Origin: Nonlabens ponticola
Lineage (GTDB): Bacteria > Bacteroidota > Bacteroidia > Flavobacteriales > Flavobacteriaceae
Assembly (NCBI RefSeq): GCF_003966335.1
Contig: NZ_CP034549.1
Span: 1,860,001-1,892,000 of the forward strand
DNA: 32,000 nt
Direction of reading: 5' to 3'
In this document: piece after piece, positions 20,546 to 28,741 of the stretch
Layout: every line of letters begins with the position of its first letter
Position numbering within the stretch: the stretch's first letter is position 1
The notes under the pieces: generated by a model
What the model was told of the DNA's origin: nothing
Seen by the model: only the letters and a program-made list of their open reading frames with translations
The model's database searches: none
Made by a program: the position numbers and the translations under genes

Positions 20546-21295
20546 ATGAAGTCATTATTAGAGATTCATCAAGATCTATTGCGCAATCAGCAGGCAATCG
20601 ATAAAGATGAAGTTGAGCAATTCCTGTCAAGGTTTGAGCAAAATGTAATGGCGACGGCACCGCGCAATTCCCTAAGCTATGCGCTGGATCTCAAAACAAT
20701 GAAATATGTTTACGTTAGTGCCAATTGTAGCATTTTTACTGGGAAAACGGTAGAGGATTTTAAGAATAAGGGAATGGACTTGCTGCTAGAGATCATGCAC
20801 AAAGCAGATTTTAAAGCGTTGTCGTATGATTTGTTTCCCGCAATGCAGGAAAAGTATCTAGAACTCTCACTTGAGGATCGCAAGAATACTGTTTTTGAAT
20901 TGTATTACCGGTTGATACACGCCGGTACTGGAATGGAAACGCCGGTTGTAGAATACAGCAGTTATGCCCGATATGATGATGAAGGATCGCCTACTTTTTC
21001 TACTGGTGTGATTTATGAATCACCCTTAGCAATGGATGGTGTGCGAGGTATTGTGCGCCATATTGATAGTGACGCTCAAACTACATTGTTTGATCGCTGC
21101 GATTTTCATGCGCTTGATGTACTTACCAAAACGGAGAAAGCCATTGTGCAATCCTTCATTAAAAATCAATCCAGAGATTGTATCGCTGCAGACTTGAATA
21201 TCTCTATCCACACGGTACGCACGCATTTTAAAAATATCTACAAGAAGCTCGATATCAATAAGGAAGCAGATTTACTGGGTGTGGTGAAAATCTAA
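20546..21295 (+). CDS. LuxR-family transcriptional regulator with an N-terminal PAS-like sensor region
   Basis: 249 aa. The C-terminal HTH is LTKTEKAIVQSFIKNQSRDCIAADLNISIHTVRTHFKNIYKKLDI (GerE/LuxR type). Confidence 0.85.
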   Translation: MKSLLEIHQDLLRNQQAIDKDEVEQFLSRFEQNVMATAPRNSLSYALDLKTMKYVYVSANCSIFTGKTVEDFKNKGMDLLLEIMHKADFKALSYDLFPAMQEKYLELSLEDRKNTVFELYYRLIHAGTGMETPVVEYSSYARYDDEGSPTFSTGVIYESPLAMDGVRGIVRHIDSDAQTTLFDRCDFHALDVLTKTEKAIVQSFIKNQSRDCIAADLNISIHTVRTHFKNIYKKLDINKEADLLGVVKI

Positions 21296-21354: not shown

Positions 21355-21488
21355 AGACAACGGTCTGAGATATAAGTAGTTGCGTGGGTTAGCGTTAAAC
21401 TTTGCAAGTACATGCCAAACTGAAAATCCGCTAGGATTTTCAGAAGTAGGCGAGAACAAGCAATTACTTATAGCTATTGTTGTAAAAC
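21355..21488 (-). repeat. attC-like imperfect palindrome, unit 1 (~134 bp), directly after the stop of the 287-aa ORF
   Basis: The minus strand reads TTTTACAAC-AATAGC-[TATAAGTAATTGC ... inner hairpin CTGAAAATCC-TAGC-GGATTTTCAG ... GCAACTACTTATA]-TCTCAGACC-GTTGTCT. The 13-bp outer stem pairs 21371..21383 with 21460..21472 and contains one G:T. It is homologous to unit 3 at 24009..24140. Confidence 0.6.
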
Positions 21489-21489
21489 G

Positions 21490-22353
21490 TTATTTGTCTT
21501 CTTTCGATTTAATTTCAAAGTATTTCTCTATGTAAAGTATGATGTCTCTTTTACGAGGTATAAAGTTACTTTGATTACTTACTTCTTCACTTATAATGTC
21601 TACAAATCCATTCTTGATGTCTTCATAGGTCAAATGACTATTCTTGTCTAAAAATTCATATACTAGTTTTCGAGTTCTCATTCTTCTCGTTAACGGACTT
21701 ATTTCTCTTTGAACAACTTCCTCGTTTATTCCGTTTTGTTCCAATCTCATCAACATTAATTCTTTAGATAAATTATCAAGCTTTGAAAGTATATATTTGC
21801 TTTCAGCAATTTCAGTCTGATTAATTTTTGCGGGAACTATAGTTTTACCGAAACTTTTTAAGAATGGCGAATAATTTGCTTCAGATTTTGCTTTATCATA
21901 AGTAGCATTAATCCTTTTTACCAATTCAGATTTGAATTCTACAATTTTATTAAATCTTAAAGATGATGGATAGTTTAAATGTTCAATAACTCCAGTATCA
22001 AATGAATACCCTGTCTTTTCGTCCTTTATAATAATTGTTGGCTTGTCAAATGCTAATCTCAATCCAAGTTCAAACATAACATTAGGATTTTTAGAACTAA
22101 CATCACAAATAACAATTTCATCATTATAAATATTATTTACTATTCTTTCGTGTATTAAACCAATAGCAACATCATCACTAACAAGTCTTGGCTCAAATTC
22201 TGTTTGTTTCACAGTATCAACTAAAATCGACAGAACCTCTTTCCAGTGTTCTTTAGAATATTCTGGATGTGAGGCAATGGGCATAATTATACCACATTTT
22301 TTTTGTTGCTTCTTAAGTACTTCTTTCTTTACTGCTTCTTTTTTCTCTGGCAT
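21490..22353 (-). CDS. Cassette ORF 1: nucleoside 2-deoxyribosyltransferase-like (Rossmann/SLOG-like) N-terminal domain plus a helical C-terminal domain
   Basis: 287 aa with AT-rich codon usage. CGIIMPIAS...IVICDVSSKNPNVMFELGLRLAFDKPTIIIKD resembles the D-x-(S/G)-x-x-N/D-x-G/V-x-x-E-x-G-x-A-x-x-x-x-KP-x-I signature of the deoxyribosyltransferase-like fold. The family call is unverified. Confidence 0.75.
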   Translation of the reverse strand: MPEKKEAVKKEVLKKQQKKCGIIMPIASHPEYSKEHWKEVLSILVDTVKQTEFEPRLVSDDVAIGLIHERIVNNIYNDEIVICDVSSKNPNVMFELGLRLAFDKPTIIIKDEKTGYSFDTGVIEHLNYPSSLRFNKIVEFKSELVKRINATYDKAKSEANYSPFLKSFGKTIVPAKINQTEIAESKYILSKLDNLSKELMLMRLEQNGINEEVVQREISPLTRRMRTRKLVYEFLDKNSHLTYEDIKNGFVDIISEEVSNQSNFIPRKRDIILYIEKYFEIKSKEDK

Positions 22354-22387
22354 TGGTTATTATGTTTTACGACGACAAAGGTATAAT

Positions 22388-22570
22388 GCGCCTCAGGCGT
22401 CCCAAACTTTTTATGGTCGTTTATATTGATATTGTTTTGTTGAATATAGCGATTACTTTGATTATATTGAGCCTTATGGGAAGTAGCTTGAATTCAAGAA
22501 ATGAAGAATGAGCGAGAGAAAGACATCAAGACGCGCATGAAGGCAACTGGCTCGAACGGTCTTATTTAAG
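22388..22570 (-). repeat. Conserved inter-cassette module, copy A (X-Y-Z parts), upstream of cassette ORF 1
   Basis: It aligns base for base with 23542..23683 (gcgcNtcaggcgtc...attatattgagcc...gaagaatgagcgagagRaa). Its right end, gagagaaagacatc...aggcaactggctcgaacggt, aligns with 23972..24018. Confidence 0.85.
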
Positions 22571-22658
22571 AAAAGTAGTGGATTAAACTCTTCCTAACCA
22601 TCAGTTTTAAAAAAGACCGCTAATTGGTTCCTATTGTTGCGATTGAGAGTTTAAACTG

Positions 22659-23501
22659 CTATTTCTTATAAATGGGTGTCCGTTTGGCTAAAAATGCTAA
22701 AGTTATTTTGTAGGCATCTTGGGTTTGCCAAAAAGACGCATGCTCTTTACTAAATAGATTGTCGCCTTTGTCATTATAAATATTCATAGTTATGTTGGTA
22801 GAAAAATTTTGAGTTGAAGAACTATACGTGCTGCTTGAACTAATCCTTTTATTATCATTCCAAATATCACCGATTATATGACCTTTTTTATCTACGTGCG
22901 CTGTAGTGGATTGAGATTTTGTCGCGGTATTACTATAATTGGTGACGGTAGATTTTTCAATAGAGACTAAACCTTGTACCAAATATTCCACACCTAGAAT
23001 ATTGCTTATTTCACCCATAGTATATCCTGCGAGATTATTGTTGTCTAGACCAGCTTTCGCTAATAAAGCATTCGTGGTGGTTGGATCTTGAAACTCAAGA
23101 TTCTGAGATTTCTTTTTAAAAATAGTATAGGTTTCCTGTTGGATTTTTCTGGTCATTAAAGCATTACTTGTTTCGAGATCTTTTATGTAACCAAAAGGTA
23201 GAATTGCGACCTTATTATGGTGATCTTCTAGGTTCAAATCTGAATTTTTAGTAGCATTATTATAAAATTCAACTCGTCCAGACGCAAAGGTAATTTTTGC
23301 TATATCAGATTTCTCCACAGTATATTCAATTGTTTCATTTTGATAGATAAATTGAAGGTCGGCTGAATTAATTTTAATGACTTTCCCTTTCATCTCATCG
23401 CCATTAACTTTTAAAATAACATCACTTTGAGCTGCAGCTAGGTGTATAAGTAATAGGCACAATGTAATTAGCGATACTTGTTTTGAACAAATTTTAGACA
23501 T
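22659..23501 (-). CDS. Cassette ORF 2: secreted hypothetical protein
   Basis: 280 aa. Signal peptide MSKICSKQVSLITLCLLLIHLAAAQS. Ser/Thr/Asn-rich C-terminal half. No confident family. Confidence 0.75.
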   Translation of the reverse strand: MSKICSKQVSLITLCLLLIHLAAAQSDVILKVNGDEMKGKVIKINSADLQFIYQNETIEYTVEKSDIAKITFASGRVEFYNNATKNSDLNLEDHHNKVAILPFGYIKDLETSNALMTRKIQQETYTIFKKKSQNLEFQDPTTTNALLAKAGLDNNNLAGYTMGEISNILGVEYLVQGLVSIEKSTVTNYSNTATKSQSTTAHVDKKGHIIGDIWNDNKRISSSSTYSSSTQNFSTNITMNIYNDKGDNLFSKEHASFWQTQDAYKITLAFLAKRTPIYKK

Positions 23502-23541
23502 AATATTTGGTATTAGTGATTTGTTATGTTGAAGATTAAAA

Positions 23542-23683
23542 GCGCGTCAGGCGTCTCAACCTTTGTATAGTCGGTTAGATTGATGTTGTTTTGGTATGTT
23601 GAAGATAGCGATTAGTTGGATTATATTGAGCCTAGCAGGAAGCCGCTAGCATCCGACGAGCGAAGAATGAGCGAGAGGAATGC
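23542..23683 (-). repeat. Conserved inter-cassette module, copy B (X and Y parts), upstream of cassette ORF 2
   Basis: See copy A. Similarity starts about 35-40 nt upstream of each ATG, at the GCGC(C/G)TCAGGCGTC hairpin. Confidence 0.85.
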
Positions 23684-23788
23684 ATTATCTTTCATTTATA
23701 CATTGTTCGCTCCAGTTGGTTGTGGCGACCTTGACCGTGCCAAGTATGCACTAGCTAACCTTAAGGCGTTTCACACCTTTGCCGACTT

Positions 23789-23983
23789 GTCTCCGACGAG
23801 CCGCTAGGCGAGAGGAAGACACACCAATTGAGTAGATCGGGAGTCTTGAAAATCAGATTTTATCTGACGCTCGCTTTGCTTTTGAATTGAGTAGTGTATA
23901 TCTGTTTCAGGTCCTTGCTTGCGGATCAAAATCTGATTTTCATATTGTCTCCGACGAGTGAGTTTGCGAACGAGAGGAAGACA
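23789..23983 (-). repeat. Two direct Y-part copies bracketing a 94-bp hairpin
   Basis: GTCTCCGACGAG...CGAGAGGAAGACA occurs at 23789..23821 and again at 23947..23983. Between them is a perfect 14-bp inverted repeat: GAAAATCAGATTTT (23848..23861) and AAAATCTGATTTTC (23928..23941). Confidence 0.8.
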
Positions 23984-24008
23984 TCTAGATACGTCCGCAG
24001 GCAATTGG

Positions 24009-24140
24009 CTCGAACGGTTATGTATAAATATAGTTGCGGGTTTGCGTGCGAAGAATTTCCGAAGGAAATTTAGATGTAGCAAATACGCAACTGCCTTTAT
24101 TTTAGCACTAAACCGCAATTATTTTTATACGGTGTTGTGC
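24009..24140 (-). repeat. attC-like imperfect palindrome, unit 3 (~132 bp), directly after the stop of the 129-aa ORF
   Basis: The minus strand reads GCACAAC-ACC-[GTATAAAAATAATTGCGGTTTAGTGC ... inner hairpin AATTTCC-TTC-GGAAATT ... GCACGCAAACCCGCAACTATATTTATAC]-ATAACC-GTTCGAG. The arms are at 24022..24049 and 24105..24130, with bulges. Confidence 0.6.
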
Positions 24141-24147
24141 ATAGTTT

Positions 24148-24537
24148 TTATTCACATACTTTATTTTTTTCAATCCACGGATTAATAAATTTCCTTTCAG
24201 TTCCGAGTATTGTTTTCATTTCGGGTTCGTCGAAAATTAGATAGAAATTTTTGTCTTTTTCCACGTATTTAAATTTCAATTCAGTACAATATTTTCCAGT
24301 GCCGTGATTTACGAGCATACTTATAATTCCATCTTCAATTTTTATGTCTTTCACGGATTCCACCATAATAAAATTAACTTTTATATCAGAAGGAATTTCT
24401 TTTTCACTATAATTTCCAAGGTCATTCATTTCAATCATTTCGTCAACGATTTCTTGAATCCATTTGTCAATAGATTTTTCTTGGTTGATTTGGATGTTTG
24501 AAATTCCAATCAAAAATGTCAGTAAAATTATTTTCAT
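24148..24537 (-). CDS. Cassette ORF 3: small secreted hypothetical protein
   Basis: 129 aa, very AT-rich, with the hydrophobic N-terminus MKIILLTFLIGISN. It is flanked by a perfect 10-bp inverted repeat (24134..24143 and 24554..24563). Confidence 0.65.
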   Translation of the reverse strand: MKIILLTFLIGISNIQINQEKSIDKWIQEIVDEMIEMNDLGNYSEKEIPSDIKVNFIMVESVKDIKIEDGIISMLVNHGTGKYCTELKFKYVEKDKNFYLIFDEPEMKTILGTERKFINPWIEKNKVCE

Positions 24538-24553
24538 ATTCTGTTTCTCAAAT

Positions 24554-24759
24554 TATGCACAACGGCCAGATATATGAACCGTAGCATCTAAAGATAGAGA
24601 AATCTTCGATTTTGCAGGCAGCCAATTTTATCAAATCTTGCGAACGACCTTTTATATATCGGTAGCCAAATTTGATAAAATTTGGCGGAAACCGGTTGAA
24701 ACAGAACCCAGCAATCCAATCCAAGCGATAGCTATGGTTTATATATGTTGTTGTGAAAC
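24554..24759 (-). repeat. Inter-cassette structured repeat, unit 4
   Basis: The ends are TATGCACAACGGCCAGATATATG ... TTTATATATGTTGTTGTGAAAC, inverted copies of each other. The internal hairpin pairs CCAATTTTATCAAAT (24622..24636) with ATTTGATAAAATTTGG (24670..24685). The stretch gcaggcagccaatt...gcgaacgacc is a diverged copy of the Z part aggcaaYtggctcgaacggt. Confidence 0.7.
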
Positions 24760-25067
24760 GTGGTAGAAGATTGATGCGAGCGCAGGCGATCACGTAAAAA
24801 TGGCGGCTCAAAACACCAGCTTTCAATGTTTGAAATACAACCGACCGATTTGCACGAACAGAACGTGCAAACGTATCAAGACGCAACCGCTTTAAAAACC
24901 CAAACCAAAGCTCTTTTGATTCCCAAACCGAACTGTCGCCATTTTTTCAAAACACAGAACTCGCTGGAATTTGAAGTCGAAGAGTAGATCAGTCAAGCCG
25001 ATGGAAGCGGAAACCTAAAGCCGTAAAACCAAGGTCGTCAAGCTCAACCACCATGTTTCACAACGGT

Positions 25068-25180
25068 TATATAAACAAACCTAAGCCAAATCTTACCACT
25101 TTACAATACTGATTATAGGGTATATACAAACCTTTTGAGGTGGTTGGGTAAATTTCCCAATTGGGTTGTATATGCAAACC
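25068..25180. repeat. Three direct repeats, TATAT(A/G)-CAAACCT, spaced about 50 bp apart at the dnaK-proximal end of the array
   Basis: tatataaacaaacct (25068..25082), tatatacaaacct (25121..25133) and tatatgcaaacct (25169..25181). The first abuts the GTTTCACAAC box at 25055..25064. Confidence 0.7.
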
Positions 25181-25260
25181 TTTACGATTTTAAACGTTTA
25201 ATGTACTTCAAGAGACTAACCAGCTCAATTGCAATAATAACAATCGCGTTTCAACTTTCG

Positions 25261-25283
25261 GGCCTGCCTGCCGCGGGCAGGCC
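25261..25283. repeat. GC-rich palindrome GGCCTGCC-TGCCGCG-GGCAGGCC
   Basis: An 8-bp perfect stem in an AT-rich spacer, with no adjacent U-tract. Function unknown. Confidence 0.6.
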
Positions 25284-25444: not shown

Positions 25445-27346
25445 CTACTTGACTTCTTCGAAATCTACGTCTTCAACATCGCTGGTGTCATCTGCACTCG
25501 TAGCATCAGCACCTGCATCTGCTCCGGGCGCGCCAGCCGCATCGGCCTGCGCTTTGTACATCTCTTCACTAGCTGCTGTCCAGACGGTATTAAGCTTCTC
25601 AAGAGCTGGATCGATCTTCTCGATCTCCTTAGTCTCATAAGCCGCTTTCAACTCGTCTAGAGCCTCAGTAATTGGCGCCTTCTTGTCGTCACTTAGCTTA
25701 TCGCCAAATTCTTCCAACTGCTTCTCAGTTTGGAAAATCATCTGGTCAGCTGCGTTCAGCTTATCTACTTTCTCTTTGGCTTTTGCATCAGCTTCAGCGT
25801 TTGCCTCAGCTTCCTGCTTCATCTTTTGGATTTCTTCTTCAGTCAATCCAGACGATGCCTCGATGCGTATGTCCTGCTTCTTATTAGTCGCTTTATCCTC
25901 GGCACTTACCTTGATGATACCATTGGCATCAATATCAAAGGTTACTTCAATCTGCGGTGTACCGCGACGTGCTGGTGGTATTCCATCTAGGTGAAATCTA
26001 CCTATCGTCTTATTATCGGTCGCCATAGAGCGCTCTCCTTGCAGTACATGGATCTCAACACTTGGCTGATTGTCTGCTGCTGTAGAGAACACCTGTGACT
26101 TCTTGGTTGGGATCGTGGTATTGGCCTCGATCAACTTAGTCATCACGCCACCCATGGTCTCGATACCTAGAGATAACGGAGTCACATCTAATAAAAGAAC
26201 ATCCTTAACATCACCAGTCAATACACCACCTTGGATCGCTGCACCTACGGCAACCACTTCGTCAGGATTCACACCTTTTGATGGCTTCTTGCCAAAGAAT
26301 TTCTCAACAGCTTCCTGCACGGCAGGAATACGAGTAGATCCACCAACTAGGATAATCTCATCGATATCGCCTGTTGATAGTCCAGCAGCTTTAAGCGCTG
26401 TTTGACATGGCTCGATAGTTCTTTTTACAAGGTCGCTGATCAATTGCTCAAACTTTGAACGAGTCAATGTTTTTACAAGGTGTTTAGGACCGCTGGCCGT
26501 TGCCGTTACATAAGGCAAGTTAATTTCAGTCTGTGCACTAGATGATAGCTCAATTTTGGCTTTCTCTGCCGCTTCTTTCAAACGCTGTAACGCCATGGCA
26601 TCTTTGCGTAAATCGATATCCTCATCTGCCTTAAACTCATCTGCTAGCCAGTTGATGATTTTCTCATCTACATCGTCACCACCTAGGTGCGTGTCACCAT
26701 CAGTTGATAGTACCTCAAATACACCATCACCCAATTCTAGGATAGATACATCGTGTGTACCACCACCAAAGTCAAATACCACAATCTTCTGGTCGGTATC
26801 CTTCTTGTCCATACCATAAGCAAGCGCTGCTGCAGTAGGCTCATTGATGATACGCTCTACTTTCAATCCAGCGATCTCACCAGCTTCTTTAGTCGCCTGG
26901 CGCTGGCTATCGTTAAAGTAGGCAGGTACCGTGATCACGGCGCCAGTTACTTCTTGACCTAGGTAATCCTCGGCCGTTTTCTTCATTTTTTGCAGGATCA
27001 TCGCACTCAATTCTTGCGGCGTGTACAAGCGACCGTCAATGTCCACACGTGGCGTGTCGTTATCACCTTTTACCACTTTGTACGGTACACGTTCTGCCTC
27101 CTTTTGAGACTCGCTGTACTTGTTACCCATAAAACGTTTGATCGAGTAGATCGTTTTCTCTGGGTTCGTTACCGCTTGACGCTTTGCAGGATCACCTACC
27201 TTGATCTCACCACCTTCTACAAAGGCAATGACAGATGGCGTCGTGCGCTTTCCTTCTGCATTAGGGATCACCGTAGGCTCGCTACCTTCCATTACAGATA
27301 CACAGCTGTTGGTCGTCCCTAAATCAATTCCTATGATTTTACTCAT
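25445..27346 (-). CDS. dnaK: Molecular chaperone DnaK (Hsp70)
   Basis: 633 aa. [21 protein letters not shown]-like ([12 protein letters not shown]), [11 protein letters not shown] and the remainder are canonical Hsp70. Confidence 0.97.
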
Positions 27347-27599: not shown

Positions 27600-27967
27600 G
27601 TCATGCTGAATTTATTTCAGCATCTCACTAAAGTCAAAAACTTGCACAGACCCTGAAATCAATTCAGGGTGACAATAACAAAAACCTTGTCATGCTGAAC
27701 TGGTTTCAGCATCTAACTATATTTTGTAAACTCTAGGAAACCATTTCGAGCGACAGTCGAGAAAAGGTGGTTAGTCTATCCCAGCATCTCACCAACGTCA
27801 GAACCTAGCAAAGACCCTGAAATAAATTCAGGGTGACAATAACAAAAACCGTGTCATGCTGAACTAGTTTCAGCATCCTACAAGAGTCAAAACCTTGCAA
27901 AGACCATGAATCAAGTTCAGAGTGGCAATCGTAAGTTTCTCTGTCATGCTGAATTCATTTCAGCATC
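27600..27967. repeat. Array of alternating hairpin repeats (REP/MITE-like), left block
   Basis: Type 1, GTCATGCTGAA-N5-TTCAGCATC, is at 27600, 27689, 27853 and 27943. Type 2, GACCCTGAAAT-N-ATTCAGGGTGAC, is at 27649 and 27813, with a degenerate copy at 27901. The linkers between them are also conserved. Confidence 0.9.
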
Positions 27968-28037
27968 TCATAGCAGATCATAACTTCCTTAAAACTCAAT
28001 CCAATCATTTATCTTTAAATCAAACAAACCAAACCCA

Positions 28038-28343
28038 TTGCCACGCCGCCACTACCACAACTACACTGTATATATTCTCACAAACAAAAAGAATGGTGTT
28101 CTATACATAGGCGTCACAGGTGGCATCGATGATCGCATGGAACGACATCCTTCGGGAACTGGCTCAAAGTTCACGGCTAAGTAAAACACCAAAAGACTCG
28201 TTTATTTTGAAGAATTTCAATACATCAACGATGCGATCGCAAGAGAAAAACAGCTCAAAAACTGGCGCCGACAATGGAAGATCAATCTAATAGAAAAAGA
28301 AAATCCCGAATGGCTTGATCTGTATAAACCGCTGGATAAATAA
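28038..28343 (+). pseudogene. GIY-YIG nuclease family gene (UPF0213/YhbQ-like) with an in-frame stop and no ATG start
   Basis: Own translation in the frame of 28068: VYILTNKKNGVLYIGVTGGIDDRMERHPSGTGSKFTAK*NTKRLVYFEEFQYINDAIAREKQLKNWRRQWKINLIEKENPEWLDLYKPLDK*. The TAA at 28182..28184 sits where family members have Tyr. The only in-frame start candidate is the TTG at 28038. Confidence 0.75.
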
Positions 28344-28349
28344 ACTACC

Positions 28350-28643
28350 GTCATGCTGAACTAATTTCAGCATCTCACAAGAGTCAAAATCTAGCACAGG
28401 CCCTGAAATAAATTCAGGGTGACAATAACAAAAACCTTGTCATGCTGAACTGGTTTCAGCATCTCTCGTAAGTCAGACTCTAGCACAGACCCTGAACCAA
28501 GTTCAGGGTGACAATCGTGAGTTTCTCTGTCATGCTGAACTGGTTTCAGCACCTCAACAAAGCAAGAGCATTGCACAGACCCTGAAATCAATTCAGGGTG
28601 ACATTCAAAACCACCACTGTCATGCTGAACTGGTTTCAGCATC
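28350..28643. repeat. Array of alternating hairpin repeats, right block
   Basis: Type 1 copies are at 28350, 28439, 28529 and 28619. Type 2 copies are at 28399, 28488 and 28578. The composite unit repeats about every 90 bp. Confidence 0.9.
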
Positions 28644-28741
28644 TCACCAATGAATAATTGCACCATCAAAACCGTACACCTTTTGTTAAACCTTACGGCT
28701 CATTTCACGATAATTATATTTTTGCGCTATACATATGTTGC

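Follow-up and report, generated by a model that had tools for sequence, protein, structure and literature searches.

The closest described systems to the locus considered here are integrons, in which crossover between the G and the TT of a GTT box assigns the right half of that box to the cassette downstream (PMC8876359), and whose integrases carry a specific insertion regarded as their defining and essential feature (PMC9668308, PMC8138268). In Bacteroidetes, IntegronFinder surveys have brought to light only In0 elements and, at a later date, a single complete integron from Salinibacter (PMC9024848). The locus lies in a 32,000-nt stretch of the chromosome of Nonlabens ponticola, a member of the Flavobacteriaceae (contig NZ_CP034549.1, positions 1,860,001 to 1,892,000; hereafter the window, whose own numbering is used unless another locus is named), where a minus-strand array situated 3' of dnaK comprises a simple attI-like site, four attC-like units and three open reading frames (ORFs). 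These units are very probably attC-type cassette sites of an integron-like gene-capture platform in Flavobacteriaceae, of which the N. ponticola array would be a recombinase-less, partly decayed member.

The two clearest units are built alike: AAC and 3 nt precede the stem, whose second arm is followed by 6 nt that end in CC and by GTT. Unit 3 (24009..24140, 132 nt, minus strand; GCACAAC-ACC-stem ... stem-ATAACC-GTTCGAG) extends from GCACAAC (24140-24134), 9 nt past the TAA stop of the ORF at 24148-24537, to GTTCGAG (24015-24009), and folds around a bulged stem of ~26 bp with the inner hairpin AATTTCC/GGAAATT. Unit 1, the last in the array (21355..21485, 131 nt, minus strand; TTACAAC-AAT-stem ... 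stem-CAGACC-GTTGTCT), extends from TTACAAC (21485-21479), 5 nt past the stop of the ORF at 21490-22353, to GTTGTCT (21361-21355); its stem contains TATAAGTA(A/G)TTGC (inverted repeat I9, 19 nt, 84% complementary), and its inner hairpin is CTGAAAATCC/GGATTTTCAG. An earlier note, made from the sequence of the window, had described homologous palindromes of ~130 bp after stop codons, with an ACAAC box a few nt beyond the stop, these stems and inner hairpins, a second spacer and a closing GTT box, all of which are indeed present. Two further units complete the set. Unit d (24557..24756, 200 nt, minus strand; TCACAAC-AAC-ATATATAAACCATAGC ... GCTACGGTTCATATAT-CTGGCC-GTTGTGC) closes an ORF-less cassette (25063-24564), and the degenerate unit 2 (22551..22681, ~131 nt, minus strand) has 28-nt arms that are 75% complementary (I1), the 5' one overlapping the end of ORF2, and an intact R' end, AAGACC-GTTCGAG. 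The usual length of attC sites is roughly 57-141 nt, a range within which units 3, 1 and 2 fall and which unit d exceeds. The units stand 3' of co-oriented ORFs in tandem, an arrangement repeated in nine loci of other genomes (L017, L020, L022, L023 and L144-L148).

That the units are homologous to the repeats of these other genomes was established with covariance models to which the window contributed nothing. Model R1, built solely from 11 units of Christiangramia sp. OXR-203 with a structure consisting of the AAC/GTT pairs and the stem, was run on the window without filters and returned on the minus strand unit 3 (24009-24140, 33.2 bits, E 3e-6), unit 1 (21355-21485, 21.3 bits, E 2e-3) and, in third rank, unit 2 (22551-22642, E 0.84), all remaining matches having E>2. 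Model R3, built solely from 9 units of Nonlabens tegetincola, recovered on the same strand unit 3 (24009-24140, 75.8 bits, E 2e-18), unit 1 (21355-21485, 51.6 bits, E 5e-12), the 5' part of unit d in third rank (24639-24756, E 0.11) and unit 2 in fourth (22551-22681, E 0.33), with noise starting at E>=1.4. The full-length match is significant for units 3 and 1, and units d and 2 reach only E 0.11-0.84. Individual counterparts can also be named: unit 3 is ~75% identical over its whole length, centre included, to a unit of an N. tegetincola array (L144, 21749-21881), and unit 1 has full-length homologs in the same species, inner hairpin included, at L147 20289-20420 and in a unit of L148 interrupted by an insertion sequence (IS).

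Outside the window, R1 found 40 units in L017, L020, L022 and L023, all on the plus strand and all downstream of a recombinase gene, and none at E<=0.1 in ~685 kb of control DNA (190 kb of unrelated loci plus 495 kb of mostly random metagenome loci). R3 also recovered the units of Christiangramia, Salegentibacter and Gillisia, together with one after the homolog of ORF1 (the last ORF of the array) in Flavobacterium psychrolimnae (E 4e-3), and nothing in the control loci L001-L012. The metagenome controls had been fetched with a pattern for the recombinase 3' end (YTRCGTTTATCCCGNAA) and are mostly chance matches; two of these contigs contain R3 matches (L057 5500-5633, plus strand; L064 51-246, minus strand), their strand and side being those that an array would have, which suggests that marine metagenomes hold more members of the family. 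Two other search tools were abandoned, a hand-made AAC/stem/GTT scanner that gave ~45 matches in shuffled sequence, as many as in the window, and a 'mini' model (R2) of two arms joined by GAAA, which did not bridge long centres and missed units 1 and 3. A search of the window against Rfam, which holds no attC family, gave no family match.

Conservation bears on structure as much as on sequence. In an alignment of 41 units, 96% of cells are paired compared with 80% in shuffles, and double-sided changes number 88 versus 27 (none of 500 shuffles reaches 88), pairing being 23-40% in controls in which partners were slid. None of the 41 units departs from AAC and GTT, nor do units 1, 3 and d of the window; the RYYY/RRRY consensus on either side is followed only loosely (GTTCGAG and TTACAAC deviate from it), and the spacers of 3 nt and 6 nt are the same in units 1, 3 and d as in the relatives, around stems backed by compensatory changes. 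As for extrahelical bases, Christiangramia-type units have a bulge at a fixed column of the 5' arm, and the model alignment puts one in unit 3, units 1 and d having mismatches instead of bulges on the R''-L'' arm.

Folding of single strands adds a polarity to this picture. Unit 1 folds at -24.0 kcal/mol on the plus strand (z -5.1, equalled by 0/200 shuffles) and at -17.3 on the minus strand (z -2.9), the corresponding values for unit 3 being -22.0 kcal/mol (z -3.6) and -19.9 (z -3.0), and unit d reaches -32.9 kcal/mol (z -4.2) on its bottom strand, the one opposite the ORFs, the AAC/GTT box being closed. The earlier note expected folding to bring the AAC and GTT boxes together; in units 1 and 3 both strands do fold, and it is the bottom strand that joins the boxes, which close in the minimum-energy fold of that strand in units 1, d and 2 (DNA parameters). 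Computed in the same way, the bottom strand has the greater stability in 40 of the 41 units (mean -18.7 vs -15.7 kcal/mol) and in all four units of the window.

This bias bears directly on two other readings. That the units are transcription terminators, or intergenic repeats of the repetitive extragenic palindrome (REP) or miniature inverted-repeat transposable element (MITE) type, with no role in cassette exchange, would agree with their being hairpins after stop codons and with the occurrence of another REP-like family in the window (27600-28700). We hold it to be very improbable indeed, since the non-transcribed strand folds better, matches in the relatives are all confined to arrays and to one strand, and neither terminators nor repeats explain the cassette-specific complementarity of R' and R'' described below; moreover, no terminator-like site (a G+C-rich stem followed by a T tract) was found at the units, the only one near the array being the dnaK terminator (25341-25308). 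The earlier note had itself named terminators and MITEs as what might undo its proposal, and the proposal withstood that comparison. The second reading, in which the same recombinase family uses the units as duplex palindromes, as Xer does on dif, draws on recombinases that are closest to XerA and do not have the domain that IntI uses on extrahelical bases, and on the fact that covariation of inverted repeats is also compatible with symmetric duplex recognition. It is nevertheless distinctly improbable, because stems of 15-30 bp around a variable centre of 60-140 nt far exceed a duplex core site, the greater stability of one strand in 40 of 41 units is not something that duplex use would select, and a bulged base is retained at a fixed position. 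Since a terminator favours the transcribed strand and a duplex site neither, a bias towards the opposite strand makes an integron mechanism, operated by an enzyme without the canonical domain, the most likely of these possibilities.

The cassette structure of the arrays is best seen in the relatives. In Christiangramia sp. OXR-203 (L017), the ORF1 homolog lies within a run of co-oriented small genes, just downstream of a tyrosine recombinase gene, and these genes are separated by twelve repeats of ~133 nt with the succession RYYYAAC, AAC or ATC, GGTT.A.CGC ... GCG.TAACC, GARACC, GTTRRRY. The bases that follow GTT are the reverse complement of those that precede the next AAC (GTTGGCAGC / GCTGCCAAC; GTTGTGCCAA / TTGGCACAAC), which is the signature of integron cassettes because a crossover at G/TT (the slash marking the point of exchange) splits the box between cassettes. 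Christiangramia forsetii KT0803, Salegentibacter chungangensis and Gillisia sp. Hel_I_86 have the same ~385-aa recombinase gene followed by a co-oriented array, whose cargo in these three includes toxin-antitoxin pairs, barstar, PycTM, PLD nuclease, RelA/SpoT, an IS110 transposase and an antisense group II intron reverse transcriptase. Boundary complementarity averages 6.0/8 over 36 adjacent unit pairs in the relatives versus 2.9/8 over 348 non-adjacent pairs; 34 of the 36 junctions score at least 5/8, and the two outliers coincide with an IS and with an intron-containing gap.

Several further features of these arrays deserve mention. ORF-less cassettes have been duplicated whole in Christiangramia (L017 848-1593 and 6965-7669; L020 from 11190, 15115, 16430 and 21075), one of them being present in four copies in C. 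forsetii. IS110-family transposase genes sit between the inner stem and the GTT box at L145 19708-20700, L148 19327-20319 and 20949-21905, and L020 19198-20184, and the Gillisia array carries its antisense group II intron reverse transcriptase at L023 13945-15204. Both kinds of insertion resemble elements that are known to use the attC sites of classical integrons as targets.

In the window, the boundary signature is present at the first two junctions. From the head site to unit d, GTGAAACA after GTT and CGTTTCAC before the next AAC are complementary at 7/8 positions (the R'' of unit d, GTTTCACAAC, against the preceding GTTGTGAAAC, counted beyond GTT), and from unit d to unit 3 the same score is obtained for GTGCATAA and CTATGCAC (the R'' of unit 3, ATGCACAAC, against GTTGTGCAT of unit d), a pair that recurs unchanged in Salegentibacter. 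Two cassettes, the ORF-less one (25063-24564) and that of ORF3 (24562-24015), are therefore well-formed. What the earlier note had taken for attC sites thus has the R''-spacer-L'' ... L'-spacer-R' layout, co-oriented ORFs, homologues in recombinase-linked arrays of five other flavobacterial genomes and, in two of the four window cassettes, the G/TT boundary signature, all of which speak for its attC reading.

The sister species N. tegetincola offers a natural experiment. It has the DnaK closest to that of N. ponticola (94% identity), one identical protein being encoded on ten contigs, and after its dnaK come mscS and further housekeeping genes and, ~5.5 kb further on, an opposite-strand gene for a 275-aa tyrosine recombinase. 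This gene is divergent from a set of small plus-strand ORFs that differs among strains (the loci compared are L144-L148). The ~110 nt from the recombinase start codon to ...TTGCTTATATAAAC(TA or AC)G/TTG are common to all strains, and beyond this shared attI five different sequences follow (TTGTGCACAAG, TTGGGTTTAATG, TTGCTGGACGAT, TTGTAGCCAATA and TTGTAACACATT). One fixed attI with five different continuations, all starting from GTT, indicates that exchange occurs at the GTT of the site adjoining the recombinase. Units with the boundary signature occur in these arrays as well (for example, GTTACCCAC / GTGGGTAAC), and no homologs of ORFs 1-3 of the window were found among their cassettes.

A comparable site probably marks the head of the N. 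ponticola array (25059..25184, minus strand), where three direct repeats of T[GT][CT]ATATA[CA], at 25176, 25128 and 25075 (spaced 48 and 53 nt), are followed by a core, TTTATATAACC-G/TTGTGAAAC (G at 25064, TT at 25063-25062). These are the only 3 occurrences of the repeat on that strand in the 32 kb. The attI of N. tegetincola has two matching boxes 47 nt apart and then the core CTTATATAAAC-TA-G/TT, and in the five genomes with a co-oriented enzyme GTATATT-N6-GATATAAC-NN-G/TT directly follows the recombinase stop codon, the window core resembling GATATAAC-NN-G/TT. Of the five GTT ends in the array, four close palindromes (units d, 3, 2 and 1), and the region ended by the fifth, at 25064, shows no folding (z ~0). 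The 3'-end motif R-V-CCGTT-S-K likewise occurs five times in the window, always on the minus strand (21365-25068), which, the motif having been derived from these very sites, shows only the absence of further copies. Between the head site and the dnaK terminator, 85 nt (25186-25270, plus strand) match the start of the N. tegetincola recombinase gene at 28/43 positions, the similarity then fading; with the start codon lost and neither BLASTN nor BLASTP giving significance, this is a mere hint that a vestige of the 5' end of the array's own recombinase gene may persist here.

The recombinases linked to the arrays are of two types, 40% identical over their core, the Christiangramia type having an extra, confidently modelled, beta-rich N-terminal domain of ~95 aa that the Nonlabens type does not have. 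Both are closest to archaeal XerA and to VchIntIA, XerA being the best match in sequence and in predicted fold. Their scores are below the cutoffs of both integron-integrase models (168-213 against 265 for TIGR02249, in a two-piece match that skips profile positions ~181-239) and around the cutoff of the XerA model, and the integron-integrase score is higher than those for XerC or XerD. Enzymes without the insertion cover Christiangramia (two genomes), Salegentibacter, Gillisia (two genomes) and N. tegetincola, that is, every related array examined. These properties also bear on the possibility that the window holds the remnant of a classical integron, an ordinary group of clustered attC sites without an integron integrase (CALIN) whose canonical attC sites are served by a true IntI encoded elsewhere or lost. 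Layout, cassette order, G/TT crossover and bottom-strand bias all match classical integrons (PMC8876359, PMC8352920), and CALINs without a nearby intI are common (PMC4889954), but the recombinase adjacent to every related array examined has no insertion and falls below the integron-integrase cutoffs, and integrons are all but absent from IntegronFinder surveys of Bacteroidetes (PMC9024848), all of which makes such a remnant distinctly improbable.

How, then, might these sites work? That recombination involves a single strand, and which enzyme acts on the units, is what we infer by analogy with integrons. Each cassette would end in an imperfect palindrome of ~130 nt, of which one strand, preferably that opposite the ORF, would fold so that the outer AAC and GTT pair, leaving spacers of 3 nt and 6 nt unpaired, followed by a long bulged stem. 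An Xer/IntI-like tyrosine recombinase would then exchange strands between the G and the TT of the GTT box, the partner being the simple attI beside the recombinase gene in an insertion and another unit in an excision. The N. ponticola array would be mobilisable in trans only, if at all.

Several observations weigh against attributing the window array to an integron-like platform of this kind. (i) When the array-linked recombinases are aligned to VchIntIA, residues ~190-245, which constitute the IntI-specific insertion, are missing, and since it is this insertion that contacts the extrahelical bases in VchIntIA, recognition of a folded strand is not assured; for the same reason, the relatives are better said to have an integron-like system than a demonstrated canonical integron. 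(ii) No recombinase domain was found in any long ORF of the 32-kb window, which leaves the array orphaned and CALIN-like; the recombinase gene has presumably been lost at this locus. (iii) The cassettes of ORF2 and ORF1, two of the four, are without the boundary signature: at the junctions from unit 3 to unit 2 (CGAGCCAA after GTT) and from unit 2 to unit 1 (CGAGCCAG), there is no match before the next AAC (<=3/8), and the last two segments both begin with TTCGAGCCARTTGCC. (iv) The earlier note had counted two more degenerate relatives of units 1 and 3 in the array, of which the one now delimited as unit d is real in spite of its length, but the folds of unit 2 do not surpass those of shuffles (z -1.6 and -1.2). 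(v) BLASTN of the head site against the N. tegetincola attI region is not significant (58% overall identity), so that its assignment as an attI comes from the arrangement and position of its motifs. It is because the boundary signature is missing from two of four cassettes that we call the array partly decayed. In short, the N. ponticola array is orphaned and in part degraded, and the homology of its better units, their structural conservation and strand bias, together with cassette turnover in the sister species, are what make attC-type sites very probable all the same.

The three orphan ORFs are accessory cassettes rather than core genes. ORF3 (24148..24537, minus strand) encodes 129 aa with an N-terminal hydrophobic segment and only sub-threshold family matches, its cassette opening with a 24-nt leader that begins with TTGTGCAT directly after G/TT. 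The 280-aa product of ORF2 (22659..23501, minus strand) is predicted to be secreted or a lipoprotein and has a weak N-terminal domain match. ORF1 (21490..22353, minus strand; 287 aa), annotated as 'RNA helicase', has >4600 homologs and no Pfam domain, and a weak PADLOC match to a TIR effector (E 8.6e-6, residues 60-131) suggests that it may be a defence gene. In three other genera (Christiangramia, Chryseobacterium and Flavobacterium) its homologs form cassettes bounded by GTTAG.. and ..CTAAC and occupy three other places in the chromosome; in Chryseobacterium joostei (after groEL) and F. psychrolimnae (after hflX) the bounding sequences read GTTAGC.. and ..GCTAAC. Judging from this distribution, the ORF1 family is a mobile cassette, present in at least four genera.

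ORFs 2 and 1 are preceded by long leaders. Leader A (23502..24014, minus strand, 513 nt), apparently a decayed ORF-less array element, begins with TTCGAGCCAATTGCC at the crossover point and is homologous (77% over 142 nt) to leader B (22354..22556, minus strand, 203 nt). They share the hairpin modules GTCTTCCTCTCG..CTCGTCGGAGAC and GCATTCCTCTC..CTCGTCGGATGC with an ORF-less element of ~370 nt that recurs between G/TT junctions in the N. tegetincola arrays (L144-L147), often as the first after attI, and can be read as decayed copies of this element fused to the following ORF cassette. An inner junction between leader element and ORF cassette was looked for and not found, and BLASTN of the leaders against the other loci gave nothing outside Nonlabens. 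The consensus of Bacteroidetes promoters is TTTG-N19-TAnnTTTG. Leader B has such a sequence at 22406-22376, ending 23 nt before the ORF1 ATG and one of 3 matches on both window strands; the ~370-nt element may be a promoter-bearing or regulatory cassette. A small palindrome, GACGCCTGAGGCGC, lies between the two promoter boxes (22376-22406, minus strand) and is conserved in both leaders. Leader A also has an insertion of ~290 nt, flanked by a 14-nt direct repeat and containing a perfect 15-nt inverted repeat, TGAAAATCAGATTTT (23847-23861 / 23928-23942, 66 nt apart). A group II intron or a riboswitch in the leaders was considered and rejected, Rfam giving no support.

The surroundings are unremarkable. 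In minus-strand order, dnaK (25445-27346) and its terminator are followed after ~250 nt by the array, then by a convergent luxR/PAS gene (20546-21295, plus strand) and a DEAD-box helicase gene, and the window is otherwise ordinary flavobacterial chromosome (parAB, dapB, signal peptidase, DUF5683/5684, ferritin). DnaK and the product of ORF1 are 100% identical to recorded proteins of N. ponticola, and exact look-ups of four proteins of the window gave no record. Used as a query against genome contigs for synteny, the luxR/PAS neighbour gave distant helix-turn-helix matches only. The REP-like palindromes at 27600-28700 form a second, unrelated family, in which GATGCTGAAAnnnGTTCAGCATGAC alternates with GTCACCCTGAAnnnnTTCAGGGTC, several copies each, around a GIY-YIG nuclease pseudogene (~28040-28345, plus strand) with an in-frame TAA (Pfam GIY-YIG E 1.6e-16 with the stop as X); neither R1 nor R3 has a match there.

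Taken further, the arrays may represent an undescribed lineage of chromosomal integrons of Flavobacteriaceae, with a compact Xer/IntI-like integrase without the IntI-specific domain, folded attC-type sites and G/TT crossover, present in Nonlabens, Christiangramia, Gillisia, Salegentibacter and probably Flavobacterium and Chryseobacterium, missed by standard tools keyed to the domain, and of which the N. ponticola array would be a relic. To this larger proposal we would give even chances. A literature search of incomplete coverage, which may have missed an earlier account, turned up no report that Flavobacteriaceae, Gramella/Christiangramia or Nonlabens have cassette arrays or attC sites. If the proposal is true, the apparent absence of integrons from large clades (PMC9024848) may in part reflect the way they are looked for, the domain being treated as indispensable and diagnostic (PMC9668308, PMC8138268). 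The arrays also (i) make the manner in which a folded site is read testable with a minimal 275-aa enzyme, natural sites and natural strain variation, and (ii) constitute in abundant marine bacteria an unexplored reservoir of cassettes that comprises toxin-antitoxin, TIR-like, Pycsar-like and PLD nuclease genes.

How does the array compare with known systems? With the attC sites of sedentary chromosomal integrons such as the Vibrio cholerae superintegron, the units have in common that they are imperfect palindromes of ~130 nt after co-oriented, mostly promoterless ORFs, with AAC/GTT boxes outermost, a pair of spacers of unequal length, a centre that varies and an inner stem that in Christiangramia-type units carries a bulged base, that crossover is at G/TT and a cassette begins with the complement of its own inner box, and that unit subfamilies are conserved within a lineage. 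Their toxin-antitoxin and defence-like cargo, and the presence in units of invading IS110-family elements and of a group II intron in antisense orientation, are shared too. The flavobacterial system differs in its recombinase without the IntI-specific insertion, in a host clade reported as almost integron-free, and, in Christiangramia, Gillisia and Salegentibacter, in a co-oriented recombinase gene whose stop codon is immediately followed by attI. At the level of sites, CC before GTT is nearly invariant and the R''-L'' spacer is 3 nt, whereas that of attC(aadA7) is 5 nt. Compared with CALINs (PMC4889954), which have at least two sites in one orientation and no recombinase gene within 4 kb, the window has four units on one strand and none within 32 kb; it differs in retaining an attI-like head, and the definition of CALINs goes through the IntegronFinder attC model. 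The 'integron-like' subgroup of simple tyrosine recombinases (PMC8138268) resembles the array enzymes, which score higher as integron integrases than as XerC/XerD, but the study that defined it described no cassette arrays or sites for its insertion-less members. The Xer family (archaeal XerA/dif) provides the best match to the array recombinases in sequence and predicted fold, and differs in acting on a single 28-bp chromosomal site and in not building cassette arrays. XerCD nonetheless integrates the folded single-stranded genome of the CTX phage, so that folded single strands are accessible even to a Xer enzyme that has no IntI domain. As a system, then, the flavobacterial arrays depart from canonical integrons in their enzyme, and as sites their units have the structural and genetic hallmarks of attC.

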